64,000 bases of DNA from a virus. Taxonomy: Duplodnaviria > Caudoviricetes. Below the pieces are notes generated by a model. The model made no database searches and had not been told where the DNA came from. It was given only the letters and a program-made list of their open reading frames with translations. Position 1 is the first letter of the stretch, and every line of letters starts with the position of its first letter. The translations under genes were made by a program, and so were the position numbers. Location of the stretch: the IMG/VR virus record IMGVR_UViG_3300019742_000001, one strand, 5' to 3'. Shown here in pieces: positions 40,920 through 64,000 of the stretch.

Positions 40920-42215
40920 CTAAGGTAGGTTTTGTGCCGCTACATTGATGTAGTAGTTTTCAGCACCAAAGATGTGTTGATGAATTGCATAACGACTCAT
41001 CAAACCAACTGTTGGGTTGAAACTATCCTCAAACACAGCCTTGGAAACCAATAACTGAATGTAAGGAAGATAGATGATACCAGTATCATACTCACTTGGG
41101 CCTTTGTAACCAATTACAACATCATCTTTAGTTGCGAAAGTGTCACGATAAACAGTCATACGACCATCAAGTGAACCAATTTTAGCAACACCAGTTACAG
41201 CCGCAGTTACGTCAGTAGCAACTGGTTGGATTGTAAATGAAGATGTTGTTTCAAGTGCTGCACAAATACTAGGTGCGGAAACAACAAAGTTACCAGCTCC
41301 ACGACGAGTGTCAACTGCGATACGGTTAGCCTTACGAATCAAGAGGTTGTAGAAGTTACGATATTTCTCAGCTTCCCAACGACCATCAGCAGTAGCATAA
41401 TCCCATGTAGTTGAAGAAGCGTTATTAGCAGATACACTTCTCATTGTGTTGATAAGTTCACGGTCAATCTCTGCAGTGATTTCATATGCAAGAACGTCCA
41501 TCATTTCTTCTTCAAGATCAAGACCATGCATTGCTTTCAAATCCTGTGCAACCTCAAGTGACCAACGGCTTCTCAACTTACGAGTACCTGCTTCAACTTG
41601 AGCTTTTTCAACTGTCATGCTTAGTTCTTTGATTTGTTTACCACTACCGATACCCAAACCACGATCACCAACACCCTCACCAGCTTGACCTTGTTGTAGA
41701 TACCCATCAGCCGAAGTTGATGCTGCGGTATTAGAACCAAGTTCTTCACCAGAAATTGTATCCATAGCACGACTGTCTTGGTTATCACCAGTGTAATAAG
41801 GATCAATTGTGTTGTAACCTACTTCTGATCCAGTTTGACCAGCATACTCTTGGTCAGCACGGAAACGGAGTGCAAATGCAAGACCAACAGGACCAGTCAT
41901 TGGCTGAACACCGACGATATCATGAGCGATTAACTCAGGAAATGTACGACGAACCATTGGGATTGCAATTTTGTGAAATTCTGCATTGGAGTGATAGTTA
42001 CCACTACCTGCATATTGATCATTACCAGCGTCAGGTGCGATGGTACCACCGATGCTTGATGTTTCGTTCATGCTTGGAGTCTTACCAGTTAAATAGTTCA
42101 TCTGGTTTTCAAGCATAACCGCTGTTGCTCTTTTTACTTTGCGATTGGTAATTTCCTCACCTTCACAAAGAATTTCATCCCACTTAGTTGTGAGATTTTC
42201 TACGTATTTACTCAT
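40920..42215 (-). CDS. gp23: Major capsid protein gp23
   Basis: RRTFPELIAHDIVGVQPMTGPVGLAFALR, RKLRSRWSLEVAQDLKAMHGLD, YLPY and SRYA motifs. Confidence 0.99.
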   Translation of the reverse strand: MSKYVENLTTKWDEILCEGEEITNRKVKRATAVMLENQMNYLTGKTPSMNETSSIGGTIAPDAGNDQYAGSGNYHSNAEFHKIAIPMVRRTFPELIAHDIVGVQPMTGPVGLAFALRFRADQEYAGQTGSEVGYNTIDPYYTGDNQDSRAMDTISGEELGSNTAASTSADGYLQQGQAGEGVGDRGLGIGSGKQIKELSMTVEKAQVEAGTRKLRSRWSLEVAQDLKAMHGLDLEEEMMDVLAYEITAEIDRELINTMRSVSANNASSTTWDYATADGRWEAEKYRNFYNLLIRKANRIAVDTRRGAGNFVVSAPSICAALETTSSFTIQPVATDVTAAVTGVAKIGSLDGRMTVYRDTFATKDDVVIGYKGPSEYDTGIIYLPYIQLLVSKAVFEDSFNPTVGLMSRYAIHQHIFGAENYYINVAAQNLP

Positions 42216-44068: not shown

Positions 44069-45643
44069 TTAAAATCCGAACCCACCCTCATCATCAGGTA
44101 ACAATTCTTTGTCTTTCTTAAATCCTTCAGCATTCGCTTGAATATCATCATCAGTCCATTTCAAGAACTTCTTTTGTAAATAGTATTTAGAAAATTCTTC
44201 ATTATTTGATAATGAATTGTAGTTATTAAAACTTGTTTCTAATAATCCTTGTCTCATATGATCCCTGTATTGATTAGGGGATGTCATTGTCATACGCAAT
44301 TTATCTTCATCAAGTCCGTATTGTTTCTTTAATCCTTTTAAATCCAAGTGAACTAAGAACATATTTAACAGTTCCCAACAGAATCTTGTTTGTTGTCTCT
44401 CAAGAAACTTAGCCCATTTGATTTCATCACGGGTTATTTCTCCCATTTGACCTGATCCAAAGAGTATGTCACCCTCTGTACGGTCTTGTAATGATGATAC
44501 CCTTGACATAGGATACTTCAACGCCTTATACATCTTACGTTGGAAATAATACAAGTCATCCAATTCAGCAAAACCAGATGGGTTACCACCAACAGAATCA
44601 ACCTGTGAACCACGACCATCAGCAGACTGAGGCAAGAAAAAGTTTTCTAGTATTGAGAACACTTCTGGATCGTGTGTCAATTTACCTGTCTGTGAATCAT
44701 ATGTTTGTTTCTTGGTAAACTTCTGTTTAATTTTTTCTACATACTTCATTGCCTTATCCTTAGGCATATTTCCAGTATCAATACGGAATACAAACCTTTC
44801 AGGGGCACGAATCATTCTGTAAATAACGACAGATGTTTCTAACAATCTCAGATTATTATATGGTTGTTTAACCTTCTCTAAGTAACCAAGAAAGTCACGT
44901 TTCGTGTCACCTTGATATCCATAGTGAACTAATGATATTTGGTCAGGATAAAAGACAATAATATTAGGGTCTTTCTTCGCATCCTCAACTGTAGGTGGTT
45001 TTTGTCTTGGCTTTAATGACAAATACTGGTAATATGCCAGTGTATTGCCCGTCATAGGGTCATATTCAAAATCCATAGTTTCACATGGTAATTTCTTAAT
45101 ATCTATGATACCTTGTTTTGGTCTGTTCTTATTAATAACGTGTTCAAAATAAACCTTACCATCAACAAAATAACTGTACATCAAATCCCACATTTTCCAT
45201 TTGATCTTTAGTTTTTTGTAGAATAGTTCATTAAACTCATGGTGAATATTTTTTGCAATATTGGAATTAGATGATAGTTCGTCATCAGTAATTTCAAGTT
45301 TTAATAGTTTTCCTTCGTAATCTTCTTGTGTTGACTCCATAGTGGCATCTTCAATAACATCAGAAACCTCTGGATACTGAGACATTTCACGGTAATATTT
45401 GAGTCGATCCAATTCACTTTGGAACGATTGATTAACGTATGTCTTATAGAAATTATTAAACCCAAGGGAGTTGTACTGTCCCTGTAAAAGAAAGTCAATG
45501 TCCTCAAGACCTTCACCTTGTTTCGCTTTCTTTGTGGTTTCACGTTCCTTTTTTGGTCTAAATGATTCAATGTGCTCGTCAATCCTTTTCATAGGTTGTT
45601 CGTACATTTCACCTAAACCGAACCATTTTCTTTTCTTTTCCAT
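44069..45643 (-). CDS. gp20: Portal protein gp20
   Basis: IYRMIRAPERFVFRIDTGNMPKDKA, ENFFLP...GRGSQV and RDEIKWAKF motifs. Confidence 0.98.
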   Translation of the reverse strand: MEKKRKWFGLGEMYEQPMKRIDEHIESFRPKKERETTKKAKQGEGLEDIDFLLQGQYNSLGFNNFYKTYVNQSFQSELDRLKYYREMSQYPEVSDVIEDATMESTQEDYEGKLLKLEITDDELSSNSNIAKNIHHEFNELFYKKLKIKWKMWDLMYSYFVDGKVYFEHVINKNRPKQGIIDIKKLPCETMDFEYDPMTGNTLAYYQYLSLKPRQKPPTVEDAKKDPNIIVFYPDQISLVHYGYQGDTKRDFLGYLEKVKQPYNNLRLLETSVVIYRMIRAPERFVFRIDTGNMPKDKAMKYVEKIKQKFTKKQTYDSQTGKLTHDPEVFSILENFFLPQSADGRGSQVDSVGGNPSGFAELDDLYYFQRKMYKALKYPMSRVSSLQDRTEGDILFGSGQMGEITRDEIKWAKFLERQQTRFCWELLNMFLVHLDLKGLKKQYGLDEDKLRMTMTSPNQYRDHMRQGLLETSFNNYNSLSNNEEFSKYYLQKKFLKWTDDDIQANAEGFKKDKELLPDDEGGFGF

Positions 45644-51147: not shown

Positions 51148-51912
51148 TCACATTAAAAAGCATTGATCGTTTGGACAATCATTGTTATTTTGTCTGTAGT
51201 TACACGTATATTTATGTAAAGATGCGTCAAACAACACATACTTGTCCTTGTATATACACACGTCCCCTTTATAACTAATTTCACCTTTCATCTGTCGTTC
51301 CCACTTGAAACTTCTATCACCTTTTTCGAATCTATATACTTTACCTATAACTGTTTTCTTTAAACGATTGAATTCAAATAAATGGTTGTTACACACATCA
51401 TCTAAATTGAAATCCGCTATTGGGGTGACATACAATATGTCCCTGTTATCCAGTATCGGTAACACCTGTTTGTATAAATCTAATGATTGTTGACCATCAT
51501 ACATAACATCAATACGCCTGATTATGTGTTGTAGGTCTGATATATCATATATTAGTTTAGGTATATCAACGATCTCTGTGTCGTGTAAACTTATCTGTAT
51601 TTCAAATTGTTCGTTGTCTAATATTCTTCTAATTTTATCAGTCAATGAAAAATTGGTCTGGATTATATAGTTCAATCCTATCTCGTTCATATGGTGTATG
51701 ATCTCACCGATAAATGGGTGACAGAATGGTTCCCCGCCAAATACGAACAGTTCATCGTCTGGGTAATGTAATTTGATGTCATCAAGAAATTTAAATACCT
51801 TTGTCTTATCTTGTTCGTGTGGTATTGATTCATCCAACATATCATTTCTACCATTACCACAATAAAAACATTTATAATTACATTCTAATATACATTCCCA
51901 TTCAATAATCAT
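51148..51912 (-). CDS. Radical SAM protein
   Basis: CNYKCFYC, FGGEP, C-terminal Cys cluster. Confidence 0.92.
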   Translation of the reverse strand: MIIEWECILECNYKCFYCGNGRNDMLDESIPHEQDKTKVFKFLDDIKLHYPDDELFVFGGEPFCHPFIGEIIHHMNEIGLNYIIQTNFSLTDKIRRILDNEQFEIQISLHDTEIVDIPKLIYDISDLQHIIRRIDVMYDGQQSLDLYKQVLPILDNRDILYVTPIADFNLDDVCNNHLFEFNRLKKTVIGKVYRFEKGDRSFKWERQMKGEISYKGDVCIYKDKYVLFDASLHKYTCNYRQNNNDCPNDQCFLM

Positions 51913-52844
51913 ACCCGTTCCTTGTGGATCTTCATTAAACCATCACAACTACAGAATTCATGTGGACAGATTCTCGGATCTATGTGTTTAATATTCTTGA
52001 AGAAATCAGTTGGAATGTTGATTGAATTTCTGTCAAAACACTGGTCCGATATTTTACAATTATTATCAATTTCAAAATTATTCTGCCAACATTTCCATCC
52101 TTTGAACTGGTTGTATTCATTACTAAATATTTCATAATCACTGAATATATATTCATCTGATTCGGTATTGAACACAAATTCCTTGACCCTCTGTGACTCT
52201 AGGAACTTAAAGAACTTGAAGAAATCCTCAGTATAATCAACATCTTGGTTGAATCCTCCATATATGAAATGGGGGTGTAATATTGCATACTCAAGTTTGT
52301 TGAGTTTTTCGTACCTGTGTTTCGTCACATCCCAATACTTAGGATCAGGGTGAAGCATAAGGTTTATCTTGGTTTTGTACCCCTTGTTGTGCATTAAAAC
52401 AATATTATTATAGAATTGTTCAAATTCCTCACCACCAACTGATTCAGGGTGAAGACTCCAAAGCATATAAGTCTTACCATCACTCTCAAGGTGTTTTTCA
52501 AAAAACGATGTGTCCTTGTGTCCATTGGTGGTTATATAAAGTCTTGAATCTTCATGAGTCAGAACCTTTTCTCTAATTATATCAAGTAGTTTGAAGTATC
52601 TTTGGTGTAGTGTTGGTTCTCCACCCAACAACCCTAGAAACACAGGCAATTCACTTTTTGACAATTCATCTATAACATGTTGTTGTTTTTTCCATAGAGC
52701 AGGTATACCCCATCTATCACCATATTGTTTTCTGGCATAACAATATGAACATTTGTATTGACACATTGTTGTGATGTCCCAGTGAACATATAGTCGTTGG
52801 ATATAGTGATCAACCCCTTGAGCCGATATAAAATCATTTTTCAT
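51909..52844 (-). CDS. Radical SAM protein with Twitch-like C-terminus
   Basis: CQYKCSYC, LGGEPT, FKGWKC...C...CPHEFCSCD. Confidence 0.93.
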   Translation of the reverse strand: MKNDFISAQGVDHYIQRLYVHWDITTMCQYKCSYCYARKQYGDRWGIPALWKKQQHVIDELSKSELPVFLGLLGGEPTLHQRYFKLLDIIREKVLTHEDSRLYITTNGHKDTSFFEKHLESDGKTYMLWSLHPESVGGEEFEQFYNNIVLMHNKGYKTKINLMLHPDPKYWDVTKHRYEKLNKLEYAILHPHFIYGGFNQDVDYTEDFFKFFKFLESQRVKEFVFNTESDEYIFSDYEIFSNEYNQFKGWKCWQNNFEIDNNCKISDQCFDRNSINIPTDFFKNIKHIDPRICPHEFCSCDGLMKIHKERV

Positions 52845-53428
52845 AATATGATCCTATCAATATCCCTTGACCCATACTCCAACACCAGTTGTAAGTTTTC
52901 TTTTGTCATATACCCCTTGTATTTTATGATGATCTTTGTTATGTTCTTTTTACTCAAGTAATCTCTTCGTTCACTGTATGTTGCTGGTGTGATTGTAATG
53001 TAAATATCATCATGTTTTTCTATAAATGGGTCTAAGTTGTGGAAATTTAGATCAGATGCCACAACTATATATTCAGTTTTTTCTTTATAGTCTTTGTTTA
53101 CTATATCATCAATTTCCATGTCCATAGAGCAATGGTAATAGATTTCATCAACCATTTCAACTACTTCCTTGTGGTCAAAAATTCTACCGTTTGACGCAAT
53201 GGCAACTTTACATCCCTTGTCTTTTAATATAGACACAACTTCAACCAATCGTTCGGTTTTTAATATTCCGGGTTCTCCGCCAGACAAAACAACATGTGAG
53301 TTCTCTGGTATCCCTTGTGCCTTTGATATAATTTCACCAAATGGTATATCTTTTTTGTAAATACGTGATAAACAATAAGAACATGTCCAGTCACAAGAGT
53401 GTGTCATTAGTATGCAATATTTTTCCAT
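52841..53428 (-). CDS. Short radical SAM protein (paralog of 55065..55661)
   Basis: CDWTCSYC, LSGGEPG, SNG; start moved to ATG 53428 (SD AGGAG). Confidence 0.9.
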   Translation of the reverse strand: MEKYCILMTHSCDWTCSYCLSRIYKKDIPFGEIISKAQGIPENSHVVLSGGEPGILKTERLVEVVSILKDKGCKVAIASNGRIFDHKEVVEMVDEIYYHCSMDMEIDDIVNKDYKEKTEYIVVASDLNFHNLDPFIEKHDDIYITITPATYSERRDYLSKKNITKIIIKYKGYMTKENLQLVLEYGSRDIDRIIL

Positions 53429-53429
53429 G

Positions 53430-54068
53430 TTACTCCTTTCGTTCCCATCTCCCATCAGTATTTAAGTATGGAAAACTTATATTGTCACCACCGTCAGTGG
53501 TTTGTGTGAACATAAATCTATTTATTTTTCTAAAAGATCCTTCTAATAATTTGAATATTACAAAATCATTCTGTATATAATTATCGTCAGGAAAGTCATT
53601 CACATCCAAACATTTCTTTTTAAAGCAAATCTGCCCAAACTGAAAGTTGTGGTTGTTGTATCCCACCATAAAATCATCTTTGGTGCAGTCACCGATTGTC
53701 TGTTTAAAAAATGACAAGAAGTTGGTTGACCATTTATACGGTATGTAATTAAAGTAGAATATGTCTTCTGTATAACCATCCAATACTTCAAAGAAATCGA
53801 TGCTAAGAATATCATCATCCTCTAAAAAATATACATAACCATCACCAGATTGTTTGTATAAATCCAAGTATAGGTCACATAAATTATCAGATGTCTTGTA
53901 TTGGTATTTTATCATATCAGTATACACTTCTGTTATGTCATTACTATCATTATTAACAGTAATACACAAATCTACATTGTAATGATGGAATGCATCAATA
54001 ACCGAATCAATACATCGTTTGAAAAGTGTTGGTCTGTTATGGGTTAATATCAACACATGTATTTTCAT
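53430..54068 (-). CDS. Glycosyltransferase family 2 (GT-A)
   Basis: VLILTHNRPTLFKRCIDSV and YFLEDDD motifs. Confidence 0.88.
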   Translation of the reverse strand: MKIHVLILTHNRPTLFKRCIDSVIDAFHHYNVDLCITVNNDSNDITEVYTDMIKYQYKTSDNLCDLYLDLYKQSGDGYVYFLEDDDILSIDFFEVLDGYTEDIFYFNYIPYKWSTNFLSFFKQTIGDCTKDDFMVGYNNHNFQFGQICFKKKCLDVNDFPDDNYIQNDFVIFKLLEGSFRKINRFMFTQTTDGGDNISFPYLNTDGRWERKE

Positions 54069-55068
54069 ACAAACCTTTCCTGTAATAATTCACTTGTTTT
54101 ATTTTTTCACCATCAACAGGTCGCACTTCTTGAATAATATCATTTTCTATGCCATCACATATATAAAAATACTTACATTTTATACATTCAGGTTGCTTTT
54201 TGTAACTATTAATACGATCCTTTTTTGCGTCATTAAATAGAGACTTTAGTTCATTTCCGATATATTTCTCTGGTTTCAATCTCCCACTATAAACTGACAT
54301 GTTCCAATCGTATATGTCATAGATATGTTGGTATACATTACACACGTATTTCTCGTATCCGACCATAAAACAATAAGGGGTATACCTTACGTTGATAATG
54401 GGGACAAAATCCAACCTGTCTATACAGGGTTTGATGTAATCAGTGATTTCTTCATATGATATGTCAGTGATGACACCAGTATTACCCCACTTATTCAATG
54501 TTAGAAAATTAACCTCATATGGATTCAATTCTCTTATTATGCCCGAAAACTTGTCAAGATGTTTGTAGTTCATATGACTAACAACACAGTTAATACGAAC
54601 CAACAAACCCAACTCATTAGCATTGTTTATAGATTTGATAATCCATTTATAATTACCAAATCCACCTGTCATTTTATTGTGTCGGTCACTGTCTCCATGT
54701 AGACTAAACAGTATCTCTTTAAGTCCGTGTTCTACAGACTTCTTTAGGAAATCCATATCAGAAAACATGACACCATTACTTAAAGTGCTTATTGACATCC
54801 CTTTGGAAACACAATAGTCTAATATCTCAAACCAATCTTCGTGTAATGAACTTTCCCCTCCACTCAAATCAACTTCTTTGATACCACATGACACCAAATA
54901 ATCAACACGTTCCTTAATCACTTCAAGGGGTGTTATTTCAGTAAGACTACCTTGATAATAACAGAACCAACAATTCTGGTTACACATAGTACCTGTGTCT
55001 AGCTTGGCTCGTTTGCAATATGGTTCTGTGTAATCGATTTCTATAGCCGTACTGATACCATTGATCAT
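54037..55068 (-). CDS. Radical SAM protein with C-terminal CxxCx5C
   Basis: CNQNCWFC, SGGE, SNG, FSLHG, CIKCKYFYICDG. Confidence 0.93.
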   Translation of the reverse strand: MINGISTAIEIDYTEPYCKRAKLDTGTMCNQNCWFCYYQGSLTEITPLEVIKERVDYLVSCGIKEVDLSGGESSLHEDWFEILDYCVSKGMSISTLSNGVMFSDMDFLKKSVEHGLKEILFSLHGDSDRHNKMTGGFGNYKWIIKSINNANELGLLVRINCVVSHMNYKHLDKFSGIIRELNPYEVNFLTLNKWGNTGVITDISYEEITDYIKPCIDRLDFVPIINVRYTPYCFMVGYEKYVCNVYQHIYDIYDWNMSVYSGRLKPEKYIGNELKSLFNDAKKDRINSYKKQPECIKCKYFYICDGIENDIIQEVRPVDGEKIKQVNYYRKGLYENTCVDINP

Positions 55069-55661
55069 ATAAACTCACCACATGATTCAGGGGAAAATGA
55101 TAATAATAGTTTTAGGTTCTCTTTTGTCATATATTCTCTATAAGACCGTATCATTCTTATGATGTTACCGTGACTTAAATTTTCTGATGGATCATTTAAT
55201 ATATTTCCTTTTCCGGGGATTAATGATATCTTAATGTCATTATGTTTCTTCAAGAATCCATCCAAGTTATTGAAATTATTGTCTGTTACAACCACCATAT
55301 ATTCTATGAATATATCACCCACGTTCTTTACAACGACATCATCTATGTCCATATTCATAGAACAGTGGTACAATATATGTTTGGTTACCTCAAGAACTCG
55401 TTTGTGTTTGAATATCTCCCCATTAGAACATATAGTAACAACACAACCCTTTTCCTGTAAGATGTTCATTAGTTCTAATAAATCATCTTCTTTTAATGTT
55501 CCGGGTTCTCCCCCACTAAGTGATACTTCTGAGTTTGGTTCTATGGTAAGAGCAGCATCTAATACATCACGGAAATTTCTGTGTTTGTTGTTAGTAATAC
55601 GAGGACAATAAGGACAATCCCAATTACAATTATACGTGGTTATTATACTATATTCTTTCAT
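55065..55661 (-). CDS. Short radical SAM protein (paralog of 52841..53428)
   Basis: CNWDCPYC, LSGGEPG; shares YHCSM and YMTKENL with its paralog. Confidence 0.9.
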   Translation of the reverse strand: MKEYSIITTYNCNWDCPYCPRITNNKHRNFRDVLDAALTIEPNSEVSLSGGEPGTLKEDDLLELMNILQEKGCVVTICSNGEIFKHKRVLEVTKHILYHCSMNMDIDDVVVKNVGDIFIEYMVVVTDNNFNNLDGFLKKHNDIKISLIPGKGNILNDPSENLSHGNIIRMIRSYREYMTKENLKLLLSFSPESCGEFI

Positions 55662-56551
55662 TATTCTATTATCCCCTTAATAATATTGATGATTTCGTCA
55701 CCATCATTCAGAAACAACCCTTTGAAATTGTGTTCAATGTCATATCTACGCCAGTACAATCCCTTATCAGTTGTGTGATAATCTATCTCGTACACAACCT
55801 CTTTGTTATAATACTCACATTCGGTGACAAATCTAGGACTACAATCTTTCTTGTTCATTGTTGGTGTGTATATATAGACACCAAACTTTTCAAATAAATT
55901 CTTAATGGGCATTGGTTCTTGTATGAACCTATCCGATAGATCCATATGTTCGTTTGTCACCAACAGAAAATTACCTTTATATTTTTCTTCTATGGATTGA
56001 AGGTATTGTTTATTCAGTTTGCGTGAGTTTGTGGTGGCATATATAAGATTGTTGTCAACAGAATCCCCTATATCCTTGTATCTACTGAACAATATCTTCT
56101 TGATATAGTTTATGGTGTTACTTCCTTCCCCATAGATCCTGTTATCTTGTAGGACAGTGATGTTATCCATTGATTGGAATGTCAGATCATTACAAGGGAA
56201 TGCCATTATATTATCAAAGAATAATGATTTATCAGAAAGGTTTTTGAAGTTACCGTCAACAACAAGAAGATTCTTGCCCTTGACGATTTTTGGTTGATCA
56301 GCAAACACAATATCAGACAACAGTTCATCTATTTCATCAGATGTGAAGTCGTATTTCTCTTGTACAACAGTTCGTATTGTATTAGGAACCATTTCGTCAC
56401 ATATCAATATACCAACTTTGATGTGATTTTTTAATATAGAATAATACTCAATCATTTCAAATAGATGTCCGTTCACGCCCTGTTTGGACCTACTCCCACA
56501 CCAAGACGAACATAAAAATAGATCATATGAGGTGTCAAGAATTACAATCAT
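55661..56551 (-). CDS. Hypothetical protein, possibly GT-B glycosyltransferase-like
   Basis: VNGHLFEMIEY N-terminal loop; DCSPRFVTEC resembles the GT-B nucleotide-binding motif; paralog of 56535..57344. Confidence 0.5.
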   Translation of the reverse strand: MIVILDTSYDLFLCSSWCGSRSKQGVNGHLFEMIEYYSILKNHIKVGILICDEMVPNTIRTVVQEKYDFTSDEIDELLSDIVFADQPKIVKGKNLLVVDGNFKNLSDKSLFFDNIMAFPCNDLTFQSMDNITVLQDNRIYGEGSNTINYIKKILFSRYKDIGDSVDNNLIYATTNSRKLNKQYLQSIEEKYKGNFLLVTNEHMDLSDRFIQEPMPIKNLFEKFGVYIYTPTMNKKDCSPRFVTECEYYNKEVVYEIDYHTTDKGLYWRRYDIEHNFKGLFLNDGDEIINIIKGIIE

Positions 56552-57344
56552 TTAGAAAATCCCTTATTAGTTTGTCATCATCAGACAAAAACAACACATC
56601 TGGATCACCGTTGCATATAATATCATGTCGTTCTTTGATACTATCATTCTCATTGCCATTTAAATATACCTTGATTGGTATATCATGTAAGTATGATTCG
56701 GCCACTATTCTATTGTTTTTGTCTAGTTGTCCTGTGTGCCAATATATAATCTCGTTGATATTTTCGAACAGTTTTTCATTGTGTTGTAAATATTTCTTGG
56801 TATATACTTTGTTTTCATCAAGACCCAATTTTAATACTATAGAATCATTATCCTTTTGTGGTGAGGATAGAAAAATACTATCACCCTTAGTATTATATGT
56901 TATATGAACTTCTTTGTATAACTTCAACCGTTCTTTTATATTAAATATTTGGTATGGATACCACCCATAGAACGTGTGATTGGGTTTCGTGTTTATGAAT
57001 TTGTGTGTATCGTTACTATAAATCCTAACGTTATCAACCTTTGATAAAAAATACCTTACCTTTGTGTAGGTATTAATATCAAGAATCAATAAGTTTTTAA
57101 TATCACTTCTGGCGATATCCGTTAGTTTAGGTATCAACACAAAATCTTCTAAGAATTTATGGTCAAATGTATATTTTTCCTTAAATACTGACTTGAACAT
57201 TTCAAAATTGTCCAAGTCAGCGTTAAGTATGAAATATTTTATATCTGGTTGGTATTGTTTTATATACAAAAAATATTCAAAGCAATAAAAAAGTGTGCCG
57301 TTTATAGTCTTATGATTATTTGAATTGTATAATATTACATTCAT
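56535..57344 (-). CDS. Hypothetical protein, possibly GT-B glycosyltransferase-like
   Basis: INGTLFYCFEY and DKNNRIVAES; paralog of 55661..56551. Confidence 0.5.
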   Translation of the reverse strand: MNVILYNSNNHKTINGTLFYCFEYFLYIKQYQPDIKYFILNADLDNFEMFKSVFKEKYTFDHKFLEDFVLIPKLTDIARSDIKNLLILDINTYTKVRYFLSKVDNVRIYSNDTHKFINTKPNHTFYGWYPYQIFNIKERLKLYKEVHITYNTKGDSIFLSSPQKDNDSIVLKLGLDENKVYTKKYLQHNEKLFENINEIIYWHTGQLDKNNRIVAESYLHDIPIKVYLNGNENDSIKERHDIICNGDPDVLFLSDDDKLIRDFLNDCNS

Positions 57345-57922
57345 CTCCTTTTATCAAAATCATCAACCAAAGCATCAAGTTCTTCCTTATTTTTGCAGTT
57401 CAATGCATCTTTTTCAAATTTTCGTGTTTTGTGGTACGTATATGAAATATGACTTAGTTTATCCATAGACTCTAAATACAATTCCAAATCTGATATCAAT
57501 TCTTCGTCACCAGTTTCGATAATTTCAAGATATTTTTCCTCTCTATTATCATCAGTTATAAAATAACCCAATGAAGCAAGTTTACTAAAAACAGTCAGAT
57601 AATCAAAATAATTAATGGCACCAACATTAAATAAACCGTAATCCATTTTACGATATACATCAGATAACGCAATCATTATATCTTTCGTCAAACCATCAAC
57701 TTCGGTTATGACAACATCCATACTTGTCAGCTCACCCTGAACACCTTTCGGCAAAAAAACCATTTTGTTTTTTGATATAGCATCTCTGATAGCATCACCA
57801 GCTGCATTAGAACATTTAATATAATGCTCGTCATTCTTCATTAGTGAGTTCTCATAGGTATCCACAAATCTTGCTCTATATTTGTCTCCTACATCCCTTA
57901 CCGCCACAACGTCAAATTTCAT
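57341..57922 (-). CDS. Hypothetical acidic helical protein
   Basis: GYFITDDNREEKYLEII motif; start probably ATG 57922. Confidence 0.75.
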   Translation of the reverse strand: MKFDVVAVRDVGDKYRARFVDTYENSLMKNDEHYIKCSNAAGDAIRDAISKNKMVFLPKGVQGELTSMDVVITEVDGLTKDIMIALSDVYRKMDYGLFNVGAINYFDYLTVFSKLASLGYFITDDNREEKYLEIIETGDEELISDLELYLESMDKLSHISYTYHKTRKFEKDALNCKNKEELDALVDDFDKRR

Positions 57923-57948
57923 TTTATTCCCCCACAAGTTTTATTGTT

Positions 57949-58443
57949 TTAATAGTTACATCCACAGTCATTGTGGCAGTCGCACCATGTATTACCACCA
58001 CAATCAGTGTTACATAAACAGTTGGATCTTAACGAATCTATCTTTGTTCTTGCTTCTATAAGTTTACTTGCACTAATTGGTATACCAGATCTTGTATAAT
58101 ACGTCACATAACCAGAATATATTTGGTTGATTGATAGTTTAATTTGATCCATTGTGGCCGAACTCGGATGAGTCCCACCACCTTCATCACTACCACTTAC
58201 ATCAGTAAATGAAAATGAACCGATCCCTCTTCTCGCACGTTCATCATTTATCGATCCCGCCAATCTATCTATATTTTCATCATGACATTTTGACCCTGCT
58301 CCTGTTGGAAATATCGCACTAGAAGCGGTTGGTGTTACAGCAAACCCACCACCGTTATAGTTCCATACCTCATTCGGGGGCACATAGGCACTACATGTGT
58401 CTGTCGTGCATTGTGTTTGACAATAATCTAATGGTTGTGTCAT
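57949..58443 (-). CDS. Cys-rich protein; putative radical-SAM substrate and virion component
   Basis: N-terminal CQTQCTTDTC and C-terminal CLCNTDCGGNTWCDCHNDCGCNY; TAATG-coupled to the SPASM gene; SD AGGAGGT. Confidence 0.8.
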   Translation of the reverse strand: MTQPLDYCQTQCTTDTCSAYVPPNEVWNYNGGGFAVTPTASSAIFPTGAGSKCHDENIDRLAGSINDERARRGIGSFSFTDVSGSDEGGGTHPSSATMDQIKLSINQIYSGYVTYYTRSGIPISASKLIEARTKIDSLRSNCLCNTDCGGNTWCDCHNDCGCNY

Positions 58444-59582
58444 TACCTACCTCCTATAATATCTCTCAAAGAGATACTAACCTTACTGAATTCTCTATAC
58501 ATATCACAGAGTTTTGTCTGGCATGACAAATCATACCACCTTTCTATAAATGTTTCCTTGTCACTGTATTCATATTTAACCACGTTACACGTAACACAAT
58601 TAACAGCCATACAATTTTTACATTCTTCTGATTTTTCTGGTTCTATGAAGAAATAAAAATTATTTTTTATCTTGTCAACAATATCATCATCTGATATGTG
58701 ACCAAATTCAAAATTGGATGATTCGGGAGAATACCCACATCCATGACAATTCACCATTTTTCCATTAGTATTTATAGAAAACCCACATCTAAAAAAACTA
58801 CAAGTCTTTGGTTGTGTGGATTCAAACCATGTGAACAAAAAATATTTATGTTGTGAATAAAAATCAATTTCTTTTTTTGCTACATCAATGAACGATTTTT
58901 TAAATAAACCCATATCAATAACATCAGGCACATTAAAATAGTCAATAGTGATACTGTATCTCATATTATCACCTAAATCATCATTGATCTTTTTTATGTC
59001 ATCCCAACAATCAGACATATACTGGATGGTGTCATACGTCACTGTCGATTTTAATGATACTTTATATCCATTTTCGTGTAACTTATATATATTCTTTTTG
59101 ACCCTTTCTGACGTTGGTTTATTTCCGACGGTTAATCTCTTTATGTCATGTATACGAGCACCATCATATGACACTTGAATACTGATGCGGTCTTTAATTG
59201 GTTTAAATATATCAATCATTCCATCGACAACATATCCATTTGTGTATATATTAAAACTAATAAAGTCATTATTTTTATATTTATCGACAAACAGTTTCAA
59301 AATATCTGGTCGTAATGATGGTTCTCCACCCCAAAAACCAATACGAATACCACCAAAATTTTGTAAGAACCATTCATCATTCATCATTCTTTCGATTCCG
59401 TCAAATACATCATCAACACAATCTAAAGTAGTGGTTTTTGTACACTCATCACCTTCAAAACAATATTTGCACCTGAAATTACACTCATCAGTTAATGTGA
59501 TTTCAATATTATAATTACCTTTGGGTTTTATTTTATCACTCATGTATTTGATATCACTACCAAAATCGTCTATACTACCCAT
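58443..59582 (-). CDS. Radical SAM/SPASM maturase
   Basis: CNFRCKYC, FWGGEP, then C...CHG...CKNCMAVNCVTC...C. Confidence 0.93.
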   Translation of the reverse strand: MGSIDDFGSDIKYMSDKIKPKGNYNIEITLTDECNFRCKYCFEGDECTKTTTLDCVDDVFDGIERMMNDEWFLQNFGGIRIGFWGGEPSLRPDILKLFVDKYKNNDFISFNIYTNGYVVDGMIDIFKPIKDRISIQVSYDGARIHDIKRLTVGNKPTSERVKKNIYKLHENGYKVSLKSTVTYDTIQYMSDCWDDIKKINDDLGDNMRYSITIDYFNVPDVIDMGLFKKSFIDVAKKEIDFYSQHKYFLFTWFESTQPKTCSFFRCGFSINTNGKMVNCHGCGYSPESSNFEFGHISDDDIVDKIKNNFYFFIEPEKSEECKNCMAVNCVTCNVVKYEYSDKETFIERWYDLSCQTKLCDMYREFSKVSISLRDIIGGR

Positions 59583-59775
59583 CAGATAAAATCTCCTTCT
59601 TGATATCTTCTATTTCAGATTGTACATCATCGGGTAAATTAATTCGTTCAAGTAATTCCATAGATTTTGATGCCATATCCAATAAAATATTTGAGGATTC
59701 GAAGCTAATCTCTTTCATTGTTATCGAACATTCGTATAACTTAATTGTCATTTCATATATATCTTGTTTTGTCAT
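59575..59775 (-). CDS. Small hypothetical protein between the SPASM genes
   Basis: 66 aa, overlaps both neighbours. Confidence 0.7.
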   Translation of the reverse strand: MTKQDIYEMTIKLYECSITMKEISFESSNILLDMASKSMELLERINLPDDVQSEIEDIKKEILSDG

Positions 59776-60755
59776 TAGGATACTCCTTTGTTAAAATCCG
59801 TAAATATTTTGTGTATATAACAATGAATCCAAACAAAATCATCATTTAACTCATGGTTGAATTTTATCGTCTGTTCAAATATAAATTTCTGTATTTCACA
59901 TAATTTAGTGTCGATGCCATTCATCTTGACAAGTCTGTGACATCCCTTACCACAGAAGTTTGTATATTCACAGTCAATACATTCCTCGTACAAATGATCA
60001 TAATCTTCTGGTATAGTAAAATCACCATTTGTACATTTCATTGCACAAAACCCTTGTTGTCCGTTAGGCATAAGACATATATATTTTGAGTCAACACACT
60101 TTTGTTTAGGTGTTCCTTTTTTTATACCCTCATATAAGACAGATACATCCCTGATAATATTTGGTGGGATTTTTATTCTATTGGATTTGAATTCATCGAG
60201 AATAAATCTCATATAAGATTCATATTGTATTTTGAGTTCGTTTACACTCTCGTCTGTCCATCCACTTTTGGCAAATTTGATATCAGCGGTTACACCAAAG
60301 TCTTTATAAAATAGTTGGTGTTTTCCGATTATATCCAAATTATTAGGGGATGTTGTGACGGATACTTTATCACATAACTGTCGTATTAATCCAATTTTGT
60401 TCATATAAAGTGACAAATCATCAGATATTAGACCATCACATGACCAATGAAATTGAATATTATTATCAGATATGTAATCAACCATTTCTTGTGTAATCAA
60501 TAATCCATTTGAAAACAAGGAAAGTTCTTTAAACCGTGTGTCATTTTTTACAGTTTCGGTTATGAACTTAATGATATCAAAATTCAGTAATGGTTCTCCA
60601 CCAAAAAAATCTATGGAAAAATCTTGATTGGAAGGAAGACTTTCATAGAATTCCATAAAAGTCTCCCTTGTTAGGTATGTATTATTATTGTTCATGTAAC
60701 AATACGAACAGTTTAAGTTACACTTTTCGGTAACCACAATTTGCAATTTTATCAT
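59775..60755 (-). CDS. Radical SAM/SPASM maturase
   Basis: CNLNCSYC, FFGGEP, then C...CLMPNG...C...CIDCEYTNFCGKGC...C. Confidence 0.93.
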   Translation of the reverse strand: MIKLQIVVTEKCNLNCSYCYMNNNNTYLTRETFMEFYESLPSNQDFSIDFFGGEPLLNFDIIKFITETVKNDTRFKELSLFSNGLLITQEMVDYISDNNIQFHWSCDGLISDDLSLYMNKIGLIRQLCDKVSVTTSPNNLDIIGKHQLFYKDFGVTADIKFAKSGWTDESVNELKIQYESYMRFILDEFKSNRIKIPPNIIRDVSVLYEGIKKGTPKQKCVDSKYICLMPNGQQGFCAMKCTNGDFTIPEDYDHLYEECIDCEYTNFCGKGCHRLVKMNGIDTKLCEIQKFIFEQTIKFNHELNDDFVWIHCYIHKIFTDFNKGVS

Positions 60756-60770
60756 TATAACATCCTTTTT

Positions 60771-61958
60771 TTATTTAATGATACATGTTACCAGTTTCTC
60801 ACTGATTTGTAAATTATCTTCAAGAACTACAGCGAATTTCAAGAACCTATCATTTGAACTATTAATATCACCTTTACGGGCAACACCACCATCAACAGGT
60901 ACTAGAAAATCACCCTTGTCAACGACGCCAATGACCCTTACAGGGATCTTTCCTGTTAATGCGATAGGTAACCCATCTGAACCTGAATTCATCACGTAGG
61001 CGGGAGAATCAGAAACAACACCAATAACCCCGTTCATAAAATCACCTGTATATGGTTCAACTTCGTATTCTGAGTTTGGCATAACACCAACAACCGTTCC
61101 AACTGGTAGAGATTCATCACAATCATAAATCTCGGCAAGGTCAGCGTATAATGCAGATGTAGCAGTACCGTGTAGAACATTACAATATATATCAGAACTT
61201 GAATTTCTCTCCACAACTGTATTAGCTATGTTTGATGTGGTTGAATATATTGCTCTGGTTGATGGGGAATTAATGGACCAATTAGAAGATCTTACAAATC
61301 CGTTCCATGCCTCATTGGTTCGGTATAAAACTCTTGTTCCCAAACTATCATCAGTCAAAGAATACCAATCATCATAAGAAGTATTGTTTGCGGCAGTTGC
61401 GTTCTGAGTCGCTCTACGTACAAACATCTGATCAATTTCCACATCAGACCACCTATTAGACTCAGATACGTTTATAGCAGATGTTAGATCACCAGTTGTT
61501 GCTATAATCGCATTTGAATATCCACCACCATTCAATGTCCATAATGATGTAGAACCATTGTAAAACAATGATATATCATCATTATCACTTCCCGGATCAC
61601 CAGATTCTATTTTAATACCAACTTGTCTTGTTCCAATTGGATTGTTATCTGATAATTTCACCCAATCATCAGAAATTCGTAAGTGGTTGGAACCGTCACC
61701 AGAATATGTTGATGATATAAATGCATTTGATGTAGTTCCACCCAATGGATGATATGTAACATCCAAATCATCATATAATGTTTGAGGTAGTGGTTGACCT
61801 TCCATTACAAATCTAATAAATTTTGTATCTGTACCCAACAAAGTATAACCTGTGTTTGTATCAATCAAAAATCTTCTTTCGTCGGTTGAATTCCAAGTAG
61901 GGGATGCAAACTCCTCCATCAAATATTTTCCTTGCATATCTATACCATGAAACTTCAT
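60771..61958 (-). CDS. Tail-fibre-like protein with C-terminal intramolecular chaperone (peptidase G2-like) domain
   Basis: ATSALYADLAEIY...VIGVVS..PAYVMN...IALTGKIPVRV.G.V.KGD motif. Confidence 0.8.
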   Translation of the reverse strand: MKFHGIDMQGKYLMEEFASPTWNSTDERRFLIDTNTGYTLLGTDTKFIRFVMEGQPLPQTLYDDLDVTYHPLGGTTSNAFISSTYSGDGSNHLRISDDWVKLSDNNPIGTRQVGIKIESGDPGSDNDDISLFYNGSTSLWTLNGGGYSNAIIATTGDLTSAINVSESNRWSDVEIDQMFVRRATQNATAANNTSYDDWYSLTDDSLGTRVLYRTNEAWNGFVRSSNWSINSPSTRAIYSTTSNIANTVVERNSSSDIYCNVLHGTATSALYADLAEIYDCDESLPVGTVVGVMPNSEYEVEPYTGDFMNGVIGVVSDSPAYVMNSGSDGLPIALTGKIPVRVIGVVDKGDFLVPVDGGVARKGDINSSNDRFLKFAVVLEDNLQISEKLVTCIIK

Positions 61959-62075: not shown

Positions 62076-63338
62076 TTAAACCAGTTTGTAAAGGTAAGCT
62101 TTTCCTCCATCTAATCCAGTAGCGTCATCCTCTTTCCATGAACCGATTACAGCGTAATCCCCGTCACATGCTACAGACCATGAAAACCAATCCTGTGTAC
62201 CAGTTCCATAAGGATTTGGGTTTATTATAGAGTGTAATAAATTACCGGTAACAATATCAAAAATATAAGCTGCTCCACTGTATGTCGAACCAGTTTCGGA
62301 TACTTCACCCGACGCACCAACTACAACATAAGTATCAGAACATGATATAGTACGACCAAAGGTATCACCCTCAGTTGTTCCTAAAGCATTTGGATCATCT
62401 AGTGTATGTAATAGTTCATATGTATTGACATCGAATATATAAGCAAGTCCACTATTCCATGCCAAAACAGCCACGTCATCTTCACCAGAAGCACCGACTG
62501 TTATATAGGATTCTGAACATGATACATCAGACCCAAACTTATTTTCCATCGATACGTTGGGGTCTGAGATCGTCTGTATCAACGAACCAGTTGCATTATT
62601 AAAAACATAAACACACCCAGCATTAGTTTGACCAAGATCTTCATTAGGATTACCTACTACAGTAATTGTCTCGTTACAGTCAACAAATTTACCAAACTGA
62701 TCACTTGACGCTACATCCGACGCATTAGGGTTGATAATGGAGTGTAGAAGTTGTCCTGTTACAACGTTGAAAATGTAGATCGCCCCACTTTCATTTCCAC
62801 CATCATCCTCGGCATAAGCTCCTACCACAGCGTGTGTTTCTGAACACGCCACAGATGAACCAAAGACATCCCCAGTAGGTACATTATAAGCATTAGGATT
62901 ATCTAATGTATGTAATAAGTTACCAGTTGCGTTATCAAAAATATACGCTTTACCTGAATTACCACCAGTATCTTCATCTTCCCACTCGGCACCAGCTATA
63001 GTATAAGTCACTGAACAATCCACACTATAACCAAAATGGTCATATGCATCAGTATTATATGCATTTGGATTTGATAGGGTGTGTAACAAAGAACCAGTTG
63101 AATTGTTGTATATATACACGACACCTGCATTAGTACCGTTAGCATTATCCTCTTGATATGCCCCAACCGCTGTGTATGATGGTGAACAACCCACAGCAAA
63201 TCCAAAATAATCCGTTTCAGTTGTCCCAAAGGAATTTGGATTATCTAGTGTAAATGTTGGTGAACTAAGGTCCACCGGCCCTGATGATGGTGTTGAGTTT
63301 AACTCATTGATCGACCTACGTAATTTGGTAGATAACAT
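62076..63338 (-). CDS. FG-GAP 7-bladed beta-propeller virion protein
   Basis: Seven DxFGxxV repeats; start moved to ATG 63338 (TAATG overlap). Confidence 0.87.
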   Translation of the reverse strand: MLSTKLRRSINELNSTPSSGPVDLSSPTFTLDNPNSFGTTETDYFGFAVGCSPSYTAVGAYQEDNANGTNAGVVYIYNNSTGSLLHTLSNPNAYNTDAYDHFGYSVDCSVTYTIAGAEWEDEDTGGNSGKAYIFDNATGNLLHTLDNPNAYNVPTGDVFGSSVACSETHAVVGAYAEDDGGNESGAIYIFNVVTGQLLHSIINPNASDVASSDQFGKFVDCNETITVVGNPNEDLGQTNAGCVYVFNNATGSLIQTISDPNVSMENKFGSDVSCSESYITVGASGEDDVAVLAWNSGLAYIFDVNTYELLHTLDDPNALGTTEGDTFGRTISCSDTYVVVGASGEVSETGSTYSGAAYIFDIVTGNLLHSIINPNPYGTGTQDWFSWSVACDGDYAVIGSWKEDDATGLDGGKAYLYKLV

Positions 63339-64000
63339 TACGATACACTCCCGACATATGCTCCATATAGTGTACCATTTATGTTCCACAAGTCAATAAA
63401 ATCTGATGATGTTAGTGTTGGTTCAACACCACCAACCCAAGATATTGTAGGCCATGTAACAGCATTAACATCACCATTATGTAGTAATAATACTATTGAT
63501 TGACCAGACACAAAAGATTCTGTGAAAGTGACATCACCACTTAAAGTTTTGATTTGGATTCCTCCATTATCGGCTGATATTTCATTACCAGATAAATCAT
63601 AAACTGTTTCTGTTACATTTCCTGTTACATTTCCTGTTACATTTCCTGTTACATTTCCTGTTACATTTCCTGTTACATCACCAGTTACATCACCAGTTAC
63701 ATCACCAGTGAATACAGCATCACTACCATCAGTACCGTTATCAAGAATTGTCACTAAACCATCTTGGGATAATACGTCTCCGGTTACATTACCAGTAAGA
63801 TCACCAGTAAATACTGCATCCGTTCCATCTATACCATTATCAAGAATTGTTACTAAACCATCTTGAGATAATACATCACCAGTTACGTCTCCTGTAAGAT
63901 TACCAGTTACGTCTCCTGTAAGATTACCAGTTACGTCTCCTGTAAGATTACCAGTTACGTCTCCTGTAAGATTACCAGTTACGTCTCCTGTAAGATTACC
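63338..64000 (-). CDS. Tail-fibre protein with GxVT/GxLT repeats, partial (continues past the right edge)
   Basis: Frame open to 64000: (GNLTGDVT)x5, two copies of VLSQDGLVTILDNG, then (GDVT/GNVT)n. Confidence 0.85.
   Translation of the reverse strand, partial: GNLTGDVTGNLTGDVTGNLTGDVTGNLTGDVTGNLTGDVTGDVLSQDGLVTILDNGIDGTDAVFTGDLTGNVTGDVLSQDGLVTILDNGTDGSDAVFTGDVTGDVTGDVTGNVTGNVTGNVTGNVTGNVTETVYDLSGNEISADNGGIQIKTLSGDVTFTESFVSGQSIVLLLHNGDVNAVTWPTISWVGGVEPTLTSSDFIDLWNINGTLYGAYVGSVS
63611..63709 (-). repeat. 12-bp tandem coding repeats (GNVT/GDVT)
   Basis: tgttacatttcc x5, then three (t/a)gttacatcacc units. Confidence 0.92.
63881..64000 (-). repeat. Perfect 24-bp tandem coding repeats (GNLTGDVT), at least 5 copies
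   Basis: agttacgtctcctgtaagattacc x5 up to the window edge. Confidence 0.95.

Follow-up and report, generated by a model that had tools for sequence, protein, structure and literature searches.

The window analysed here is a stretch of 64,000 nucleotides (nt) from the IMG/VR virus record IMGVR_UViG_3300019742_000001 (Duplodnaviria; Caudoviricetes), which represents the structural module of a large, uncultured T4-like myovirus with every gene on the minus strand; the phage sequence, a contig of ~240 kb, is known only from microbial-mat metagenomes. Our subject is a compact cassette within this module, in which two radical S-adenosylmethionine (SAM) enzymes of the SPASM type, rSAM1 (326 amino acids [aa], 59775-60755, containing CNLNCSYC) and rSAM2 (379 aa, 58443-59582, containing CNFRCKYC), precede a Cys-repeat protein of 164 aa, named CYS in this study (57949-58443), which appears to be a fibre-class protein and the probable substrate of the enzymes. 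A small protein, sm66 (66 aa, 59575-59775), is encoded between the two enzymes, overlapping rSAM1 by 1 nt and rSAM2 by 8 nt, and each stop overlaps the next start along rSAM1-sm66-rSAM2-CYS, with p198 as the fifth gene of the chain. The rSAM2/CYS junction (58441-58455) reads AGGAGGT-N5-TAATG, with the Shine-Dalgarno sequence at 58455-58449 and the TAATG at 58445-58441 common to the rSAM2 stop and the CYS start. Directly upstream of the cassette lies fib395 (395 aa, tail-fibre-like, 60771-61958), which matches phrog_19602 'tail fiber protein' (E 1.7e-9) and phrog_22593, shows a weak Pfam match to the Peptidase_G2 cleavage domain, and is kept at this place in loci L001, L004, L008, L028 and many of L034-L064. 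The whole order of transcription is a repeat-rich fibre open reading frame (ORF), an FG-GAP protein, fib395, rSAM1, sm66, rSAM2, CYS and p198, followed by p269, p296, four more radical SAM genes and a GT2 gene up to the portal gene. The sequence-only reading of this DNA had picked out two SPASM-type enzymes ahead of a Cys-rich protein, its TAATG coupling and strong Shine-Dalgarno sequence, and the position of the block right after tail-fibre genes; these observations all hold on re-examination, the last one through the phrog_19602 match of fib395 and the FG-GAP protein.

CYS contains 11 Cys residues, namely C8, C12 and C17 in an N-terminal motif (58393-58422, minus strand), C53, and seven within the last 23 residues, in agreement with the three N-terminal and seven C-terminal Cys counted earlier. 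The C-terminal Cys module (residues 142-164, 57952-58020, minus strand) is built of hexad-like repeats (CxCNxD / CxxNxx / CxCHxD / CGCNY, ~3 units in the window protein) and ends at the predicted mature C-terminus. In the family, it follows the pattern C-[ILV]-C-N-x-D-C-x-x-N-x-x-C-x-C-[HY]-x-D-C-G-C-N-Y, in which Asn, Asp and Tyr are kept along with Cys; the column profile of 79 members gives N4 70%, D6 86%, N10 76%, D18 65%, G20 75%, N22 68% and Y23 87%. Since C142, C154, C156, C160 and Y164 are invariant and C8, C17, C144, C148 and C162 are at least 90% conserved in an alignment of 71 sequences, the Cys pattern of CYS is not a matter of chance. C12 is invariant in the close relatives, and distant members carry the N-terminal motif MACSGxHCxxHxTGTxTCxGHR. 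The AlphaFold2 (AF2) model of the monomer (predicted local distance difference test [pLDDT] 79.6) shows a confident three-helix core at residues 20-140 and low confidence at both Cys-rich ends. Its fold has no match in the PDB by Foldseek at E<=0.001 and nothing better than E 0.24 in BFVD, and the matches of a wide VIA-align search, all at Z<=6.1, were generic helical bundles and CH domains and are taken here as non-informative; the ESM-Atlas neighbours of CYS are viral clusters, one of them 91% Peptidase_S74-bearing.

Word search detected four close homologues of CYS (51-54% identity), and a profile search of 1.84 billion representatives extended the family to 92 clusters at 50% identity. CYS and seven relatives with expanded repeats matched nothing in Pfam, NCBIfam or PHROGs, and tblastn of CYS and a distant family member against 50,697 GenBank phage records gave no match. 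The genomic contexts of the relatives were collected by exact-protein look-up and a degenerate motif scan of IMG/VR, followed by ORF and phmmer annotation. In all 21 distinct loci with readable flanks, derived from IMG/VR, Logan, ENA and NCBI and spanning 23-60% identity, an rSAM2 homologue is located directly upstream of the CYS homologue, usually at a spacing of 0-5 nt. Very distant members are included, such as P0062, P0083 (on a contig recoded with TAG=Q) and the 413-aa P0016. The possibility that homologues of the Cys-rich protein commonly occur without SPASM genes, regarded earlier as a sign that the proposal was wrong, is thus not borne out by the synteny survey. A reverse scan of IMG/VR with the rSAM2 alignment yielded at least 260 confirmed relatives, of which the best 80 were taken; among these, 32 loci encode a full-length enzyme of the rSAM2 clade, and a Cys-repeat protein is adjacent or in the cluster in 28 of the 32. 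The 28 comprise 23 loci with a match to the CYS hidden Markov model (HMM) and five (L038, L042, L057, L059 and L060) with a hugely repeat-expanded protein directly downstream, which the HMM missed because of that expansion; the exceptions are L053 and three genomes of Campylobacter phages of the genus Firehammervirus.

The two-way adjacency, recurring in about 40 other phage contigs, supports the functional coupling of enzyme and CYS that had been suggested from the window. In L036, L049 and L062, the gene order is permuted, with the genes still together, and the smallest set kept throughout is sm66-rSAM2-CYS-p198. Viral SPASM enzymes of still greater distance adjoin other CxC-repeat proteins (L065, L074/75, L076 and L111), and the radical SAM pairs of Erwinia jumbo phages have no Cys-rich neighbour. 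Two apparent complications of the survey were set aside: L028 looked like a counter-example owing to missing precomputed Pfam data, with rSAM1, sm66 and rSAM2 all present on inspection, and five of the 18 IMG/VR motif matches (L005, L007, L011, L014 and L018) were out-of-frame chance matches. In L029, the gene at 5001-5513 of the Logan contig SRR14574040 encodes a very distant relative of CYS and can be read through only under TAG=Q, which marks the phage as recoded; a radical SAM gene is directly upstream of it, with two Gly_transf_sug genes and more radical SAM genes downstream. In having a modifying enzyme encoded beside a candidate substrate with repeated motifs of variable copy number, the locus resembles a gene cluster for peptides that are made on ribosomes and modified after translation (RiPPs). 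A leader-core precursor, a RiPP recognition element (RRE) or PqqD-like domain, and a protease or exporter, which mark the classical form of such clusters, were not found, and CYS is not a classical short RiPP precursor since it is a 164-aa protein with a confidently folded core.

The nature of CYS is suggested by what follows the Cys module in its relatives. In most of them, the residues after the module are S-D-x-R-L-K-x-x-I, the start of the Peptidase_S74 intramolecular chaperone. Pfam assigns Peptidase_S74 to 11 of 71 family members and no other family to any, and the family profile reaches the solved structures 8jov (tail fibre), 6f45 (T5 long tail fibre) and 3gud (phi29 appendage) only through the S74 domain. 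Three C-terminal states can be distinguished: 17 members have an extension of at least 60 residues, where the fused chaperone is located; 33 end 12-13 residues into S74, the rest being encoded by a separate, TAATG-coupled ORF of ~90 aa; and 27, including the window protein, stop at ...CGCNY. The chaperone is accordingly fused or split in ~50 of 96 family representatives, and the window protein has no S74 residues. Judged from these sequences, the CYS family is a fibre class, of which the window member is a chaperone-less derivative; the earlier suggestion of a protein-sized, fibre-like target is thereby strengthened. In the split form, seen in about one-third of the relatives (e.g., L002:1938-2737, L026:61-839, L028:6001-6917, L034:4589-5574 and L025:372-1177), the gene stops after SDxRLKxxIxxL and the ~90-aa remainder follows in another frame, often with its own AGGAG, so that the Ser/Lys cleavage motif stays on the fibre and the chaperone body is supplied in trans. 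Residue 1263 is the last of the mature T5 pb1 fibre; Ser1264 is lost together with the chaperone, which unmasks the receptor-binding end (PMC4690869). By analogy, the Cys module would form the outermost tip of the mature protein, and the window version is encoded already 'pre-cleaved', its final residue falling precisely at the predicted cleavage site, just ahead of the Ser that goes with the chaperone; the proposed placement of the Cys-rich tail at a fibre tip is consistent with this analogy.

The number of Cys repeats varies widely, from ~3 units in the window protein to dozens in relatives: L038 encodes a protein of 245 aa with 35 Cys, which ends ...CNCAYSDKRLK, and that of L042, built of CxCxCNY units, has 59 Cys among 291 aa. 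Such CxCxCNY expansions (L042:4561-5436; L038:4634-5371 and 5401-5778; L045:4635-5210 and 5223-5783) include tandem paralogues and all come directly after rSAM2 homologues. Copy-number variation beside a SPASM enzyme is to be expected of an iteratively modified substrate and equally of a modular fibre shaft.

Cultured phages, too, carry a relative of the pair, which surfaced only through the reciprocal rSAM2 scan. In the Firehammervirus phages CP220, CPt10 and CP21, a Cys-rich ORF is located 2.2-2.6 kb upstream of the rSAM2 homologue. The CP220 ORF is annotated as the 534-aa 'hypothetical protein' APL47_gp140 (L003:5191-6795), and the annotated 21-bp 'repetitive region x' (x.1-x.6) encodes CxCxCNY heptads, preceded by a helix resembling the pre-module helix of CYS. 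APL47_gp140 aligns with the CYS family over the first conserved helix (hhalign probability 89.8%, E 1.8e-6) and with the expanded relative in L038 over helix and repeats (BLASTP 1e-12, to be read with the caveat of low complexity). The repeat protein is present in 15 of 15 Firehammervirus records; in CP21 and WX1 it is labelled 'putative N-acetylneuraminate pyruvate lyase', a label that looks unfounded. The orthologue in vB_CcoM-IBB_35 is gene 3-9 (60,318 Da; L114:4501-6105). The table of proteins identified by electrospray ionization tandem mass spectrometry in purified IBB_35 virions lists 3-9 at 2.6% coverage, a value similar to that of the portal protein (2.5%), and does not contain the radical SAM gene product 3-5 (PMC3322345). 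This detection constitutes weak but real experimental support for a protein of this kind being a virion component and agrees with the fibre-like nature proposed for CYS.

Both enzymes of the cassette surpass the cutoff of the Pfam family Radical SAM (PF04055; rSAM1 41.9 bits, rSAM2 59.3 bits, cutoff 29.5), and the CxxxCxxC cluster Cys and GGEP are invariant among the homologues of both. Besides the three cluster Cys, alignment with 8 homologues of rSAM1 and 11 of rSAM2 reveals exactly seven invariant auxiliary Cys per enzyme: C220, C237, C259, C262, C268, C272 and C286 in rSAM1, giving the canonical CX2CX5CX3C, and C261, C279, C321, C324, C329, C332 and C359 in rSAM2 (cluster Cys C34, C38 and C41), giving CX2CX4CX2C. 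Going by these residues and the modelled fold of rSAM2, the two proteins belong to the SPASM-type radical SAM class. In the HMM search of maturase families that had been recommended as a check, the nearest NCBIfam family of both is the PapB ranthipeptide maturase NF047865 (74 bits against a cutoff of 340), rSAM2 residues 27-330 aligning to PapB 6-312 of 330. Full-length alignments of rSAM2, all far below the cutoffs, were also obtained with TIGR04115 (CXXX-repeat maturase), QhpD (26-366 to 96-440) and the anaerobic sulfatase-maturating enzymes (anSMEs); its first ~200 residues (12-214) align to NF038107 (CefB). The sulfatase maturase family TIGR03942 itself does not include rSAM2 (39.9 bits against 349), and the C/S-x-P/A-x-R motif is absent from CYS. 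The only family resemblance suggested by PADLOC is a generic one to pVip, in the radical SAM core.

Among solved structures, the closest sequence relative of rSAM1 is CteB (5wgg, E 3.7e-12), and none was found for rSAM2 at E<=1e-3. The AF2 model of rSAM2, built from an alignment of 12 sequences (pLDDT 70, predicted template modelling [pTM] score 0.75; Cys loops of low confidence), matches anSMEcpe 4k39 best (E 1e-11, TM score 0.65-0.68), together with CteB 5wgg, ChlB 9gmc and TigE 8vpo; these four (E 1e-11 to 3e-8) rank ahead of the sugar-modifying DesII (2e-6) and BlsE (1e-5). All four are SPASM enzymes; peptides or proteins are the substrates of anSME, CteB and TigE, and ChlB has been crystallized with its precursor peptide ChlA bound. 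TigE makes cyclopropylglycine on a repeat substrate (PMC10878394), and since SPASM chemistry is so diverse, the fold of rSAM2 does not fix its reaction. In size and architecture, rSAM2 is anSME-like and has no N-terminal RRE domain. It is always present, whereas rSAM1 is missing from L001 and L034 and is therefore dispensable for the core. A division of labour, with rSAM1 acting on the N-terminal and rSAM2 on the C-terminal Cys, was considered and found no support: L001 keeps the N-terminal motif without rSAM1, and L008 shows the reverse.

Putting these findings together, we favour on balance, and with only modest confidence, the interpretation that the SPASM-type enzymes modify the Cys repeats of CYS in an enzyme-dependent way and that CYS is a short fibre-class virion protein. 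In the predicted pathway, one or two SPASM-type radical SAM enzymes, always including rSAM2, in most phages joined by rSAM1, and probably helped by sm66, would modify the Cys-repeat ends of CYS, a short trimeric protein, in the cytoplasm before or during assembly. We infer that the C-terminal repeat region would pass through rSAM2 as an unfolded thread, with one reaction at each repeat, as in the iterative SPASM maturases. The most likely product would be intrachain thioethers that join the sulfur of Cys to a carbon atom in a conserved neighbouring Asn, Asp or Tyr, in the style of the ranthipeptides or QhpC, which would give a redox-insensitive, rigid tip able to survive outside the cell; a different radical reaction at these repeats is possible as well. 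The GT-B, GT2 and small radical SAM genes farther downstream may add more decoration to CYS or build a glycan. Thioethers are the leading candidate because the nearest families are of the ranthipeptide, SCIFF and QhpD types, Cys is invariant in each repeat, and Asn or Asp stands at fixed offsets. As a specific assignment they remain tentative, on the doubtful side, taking rather more than half of the weight that we give to modification as such. That phages widely employ SPASM enzymes to install covalent radical cross-links, repeat by repeat, in a fibre tip or shaft is a plausible generalization, to which we would grant slightly less than an even chance.

The proposed system is worth comparing with those already characterized. 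The known targets of radical SAM/SPASM maturases are small secreted peptides and, in a few cases, enzyme subunits; PapB joins Cys to Asp within repeated CX3D units, and QhpD installs Cys-to-Asp/Glu thioethers in an enzyme subunit. The window enzymes share with PapB and CteB the radical SAM core, a SPASM region with seven auxiliary Cys, and an adjacent substrate gene with repeated Cys and conserved Asp or Asn, but they score at ~1/5 of the family cutoffs and have no RRE. Their presumed substrate is a folded, fibre-class protein of at least 164 aa instead of a leader-core peptide, it is accompanied by no protease or exporter, its repeat unit is CxCNxD or CxCxCNY, and it is encoded in a phage structural module. 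With anSME and the QhpD/QhpC pair, the likeness lies in SPASM enzymes acting on a real protein, anSMEcpe being the rSAM2-sized, RRE-less best fold match; the differences are the missing sulfatase-type motif, the scores far below the cutoffs, and substrates that would be repeat arrays of virion proteins. TigE/TigB, the CXXX-repeat systems and CefB, with Cys at every fifth position, likewise combine a single SPASM enzyme with a tandem-repeat substrate encoded beside it, whereas their repeats are others, the chemistry of TigE is cyclopropylglycine formation, and their clusters are bacterial RiPP clusters; here, the repeats terminate a phage fibre-class protein.

On the side of the virion, the S74 fibres and spikes (K1F endosialidase, T5 pb1 and phi29 gp12) have the SDxRLK start and full domain seen in the CYS family and, for pb1, a similar predicted end. 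In contrast to them, the window CYS has lost the chaperone entirely, one-third of its relatives encode it as a separate TAATG-coupled ORF, and a Cys ladder, not the known triple beta-helix, precedes it; we know of no radical SAM partner for the classical S74 fibres. Metal-lined fibre tips are known from the HxH-iron needle of T4 gp37, the zinc of gp12 and the spike apex of P2 and phi92, and they too repeat a short X-x-X along a trimeric tip, so as to place six like side chains round the three-fold axis. CYS differs from them in having Cys for His, in the radical SAM enzymes accompanying its gene, and in being known from genes and models.

Several observations weigh against the modification of CYS by these enzymes, and our confidence is held down because the proposal is built wholly from gene neighbourhood and family resemblance. 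The Pfam SPASM model matches neither rSAM1 nor rSAM2 at E<=0.01, PapB is a nearest family and not one to which they belong, and all other NCBIfam scores of the two enzymes are likewise far under the curated cutoffs. No RRE, leader-like region, protease or exporter was detected among the cassette genes with Pfam, NCBIfam and PHROG. L053 has the enzyme without a Cys-rich neighbour, the Firehammervirus repeat protein is ~2.2 kb from the enzyme and not adjacent, and rSAM1 and the N-terminal Cys motif do not occur in step (L001 and L008). In its model, the CYS monomer looks more like a compact helical domain, floppy at its Cys-rich ends, than like a long fibre, and the virion identification of IBB_35 gene 3-9 comes from a coverage of only 2.6%. 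In addition, C-C links, cyclopropanes, formylglycine and epimers are also among the products of SPASM enzymes, with TigE, ChlB and anSME among the best fold matches of rSAM2, which leaves the thioether as a leading guess only. Finally, metal binding or disulfide formation could be all that CxC repeats on a three-fold axis do, and the cassette is always accompanied by glycosyltransferases and further radical SAM genes, so that the enzymes could serve a glycan pathway.

The last two points make up the alternative to be taken most seriously, although we regard it as unlikely: the Cys repeats would be a metal or disulfide ladder in a trimeric fibre tip, comparable to the HxH-iron needle of T4 gp37, the radical SAM enzymes would serve another target such as the downstream glycan pathway, and the co-location would reflect nothing but a shared host-recognition island. 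A CxC every 6-7 residues, with its Cys at i and i+2 on the same strand face, ahead of a trimer-specific chaperone, would suit axial metal or interchain disulfides; GT-B-like, GT2 and more radical SAM genes are always part of the cassette, joined in relatives by Gly_transf_sug and DegT; and the host-recognition clusters of pelagimyophages are reported to gain and lose radical SAM cassettes (PMC7029224). The pairing of rSAM2 and CYS is, however, tighter than co-residence in an island would require, as the stops and starts mostly overlap or abut and the pair survives the rearrangements of L036, L049 and L062. By fold and by HMM, rSAM2 has its neighbours among SPASM enzymes that modify peptides and proteins, not among sugar enzymes, and the distant viral SPASM enzymes adjoin unrelated CxC-repeat proteins with no sugar genes in view.

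Two further explanations keep a role for the Cys residues outside the virion. CYS might be modified and yet be a RiPP-like product freed at lysis, such as a bacteriocin or signalling protein, or an intracellular effector, as its compact helical model, the missing chaperone domain of the window protein and the absence of a fold match to known fibre domains would allow. We consider this quite improbable, because a fused or split Peptidase_S74, a hallmark of trimeric tail fibres and spikes, occurs in about half of the representatives, the gene stands within the structural module, with fibre genes directly ahead of it and the portal gene following, the relative in Campylobacter phages was among the proteins identified in virions, and neither an exporter nor a leader protease is among the cassette genes; the conserved next gene in the usual position of a fibre-assembly helper is a weaker argument to the same effect. 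Least credible, and indeed very improbable, is a function of CYS as an iron-sulfur or thiolate-cluster helper of the six radical SAM enzymes, be it as electron donor, cluster scaffold or carrier of a cofactor precursor. Six radical SAM proteins within 9 kb do need reductant and Fe-S supply, CYS is Cys-dense at both termini, and its invariant C-terminal Tyr is reminiscent of the mycofactocin precursor, with MftC a weak match of rSAM2 (E 7.5e-9). On the other hand, CYS lacks a ferredoxin-type CxxCxxCxxxCP motif, dozens of repeats and fusion to a fibre trimerization chaperone would be senseless in an electron carrier, and a relative was found in virions.

If phages do cross-link fibre repeats as a class, this would be the first RiPP-type maturation of a protein of the virus particle, in a class comprising >90 protein clusters, relatives with dozens of repeats and the cultured Campylobacter Firehammervirus phages. 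It would be a new viral way to build redox-proof, protease-resistant adsorption organelles, and would add a layer to host-range evolution through repeat number and cross-link pattern in the host-recognition island. Full-text literature searches, which reach few subscription journals, found no link between a SPASM enzyme and a Cys-repeat phage fibre. Campylobacter phages carry 11-12 unexplained radical SAM genes, noted since 2010 (PMC2853527), and the present proposal offers a hypothesis for these gene sets and for the host-recognition clusters of pelagimyophages (PMC7029224). The repeat substrates and compact, RRE-less SPASM enzymes also form a large natural library for peptide-stapling biotechnology, and the idea is directly testable because cultured Firehammervirus phages carry a relative of the pair.

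The remaining cassette genes give hints of accessory functions. An ORF of 62-100 aa occupies the sm66 position in most loci and keeps its helical, acidic character; sm66 has no match in Pfam, NCBIfam or PHROG, and its Atlas model resembles helical hairpins of the FlgN/FliT type (TM 0.76-0.80), a lead of low specificity. We rejected sm66 as the true Cys-bearing precursor, since its distant homologues have no Cys and no Cys is conserved. The gene p198 (57341-57922, minus strand) follows CYS in nearly all loci and matches phrog_25260, to which PHROG assigns no function. Its start is most likely the ATG at 57922 (MKFDVV..., 193 aa) and not the TTG at 57937 of the ORF list, because the GGGGGA Shine-Dalgarno sequence fits better and the ESM Atlas record starts there. 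The Atlas model offers weak structural leads to DUF4376 and tail-assembly chaperones (TM 0.38-0.43); assignment as a DUF4376 tail-assembly chaperone was dropped, as it comes from weak TM scores alone and Pfam and PDB profile searches gave no confirmation, and a part as a fibre assembly helper is possible. Members of the p198 family also occur in Campylobacter phages, for example CP220 APL47_gp015 (L022:6718-7416), which is flanked by a baseplate hub gene and one for a QueE-like radical SAM protein and is not near the repeat protein; the p198-family stretch is the only part of the finding with similarity at the DNA level to any GenBank phage.

The downstream extension with p269, p296, rSAM3, rSAM4, GT2, rSAM5 and rSAM6 (51909-57344, minus strand) brings the radical SAM proteins of the phage to six within 9 kb, and Pfam detects four Radical_SAM domains and one Glycos_transf_2 in it. 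The radical SAM genes here encode two proteins of ~200 aa with an HxsC-like N-terminus, one MoaA/BlsE-like protein of 343 aa and one of 311 aa; the 343-aa rSAM4 (54037-55068) is the best-conserved cassette gene across phages (E about 1e-130). p296 resembles a GT-B glycosyltransferase with a GT4/GT1-like fold in the Atlas (TM 0.58-0.69), and this part of the operon holds GT2 and two GT-B-like proteins. The gene order recurs in L004, L009, L012, L020, L023 and others, and relatives add other glycosyltransferases (Gly_transf_sug) and a DegT aminotransferase.

The structural module itself includes, on the minus strand, the genes for the portal (44069-45643), the major head protein (40920-42215) and the tail sheath (28092-30365), as well as a baseplate hub gene; the head protein shares only ~35% identity with its cyanophage counterparts. 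Within rSAM2, ~325 nt before the CYS start, a perfect TATAAATA resembling a late promoter of the T4 type is present at 58769-58776 (minus strand); the motif is not enriched across the window (12 observed against 10.8 expected), and this copy may be due to chance. Upstream of fib395, the fibre ORF at 63338-64000 has GN(V/L)TGDVT octad repeats and extends past the end of the window, and the gene at 62076-63389 encodes a 437-aa, seven-bladed FG-GAP repeat protein, whose homologue in L001 is 1,827 aa long.

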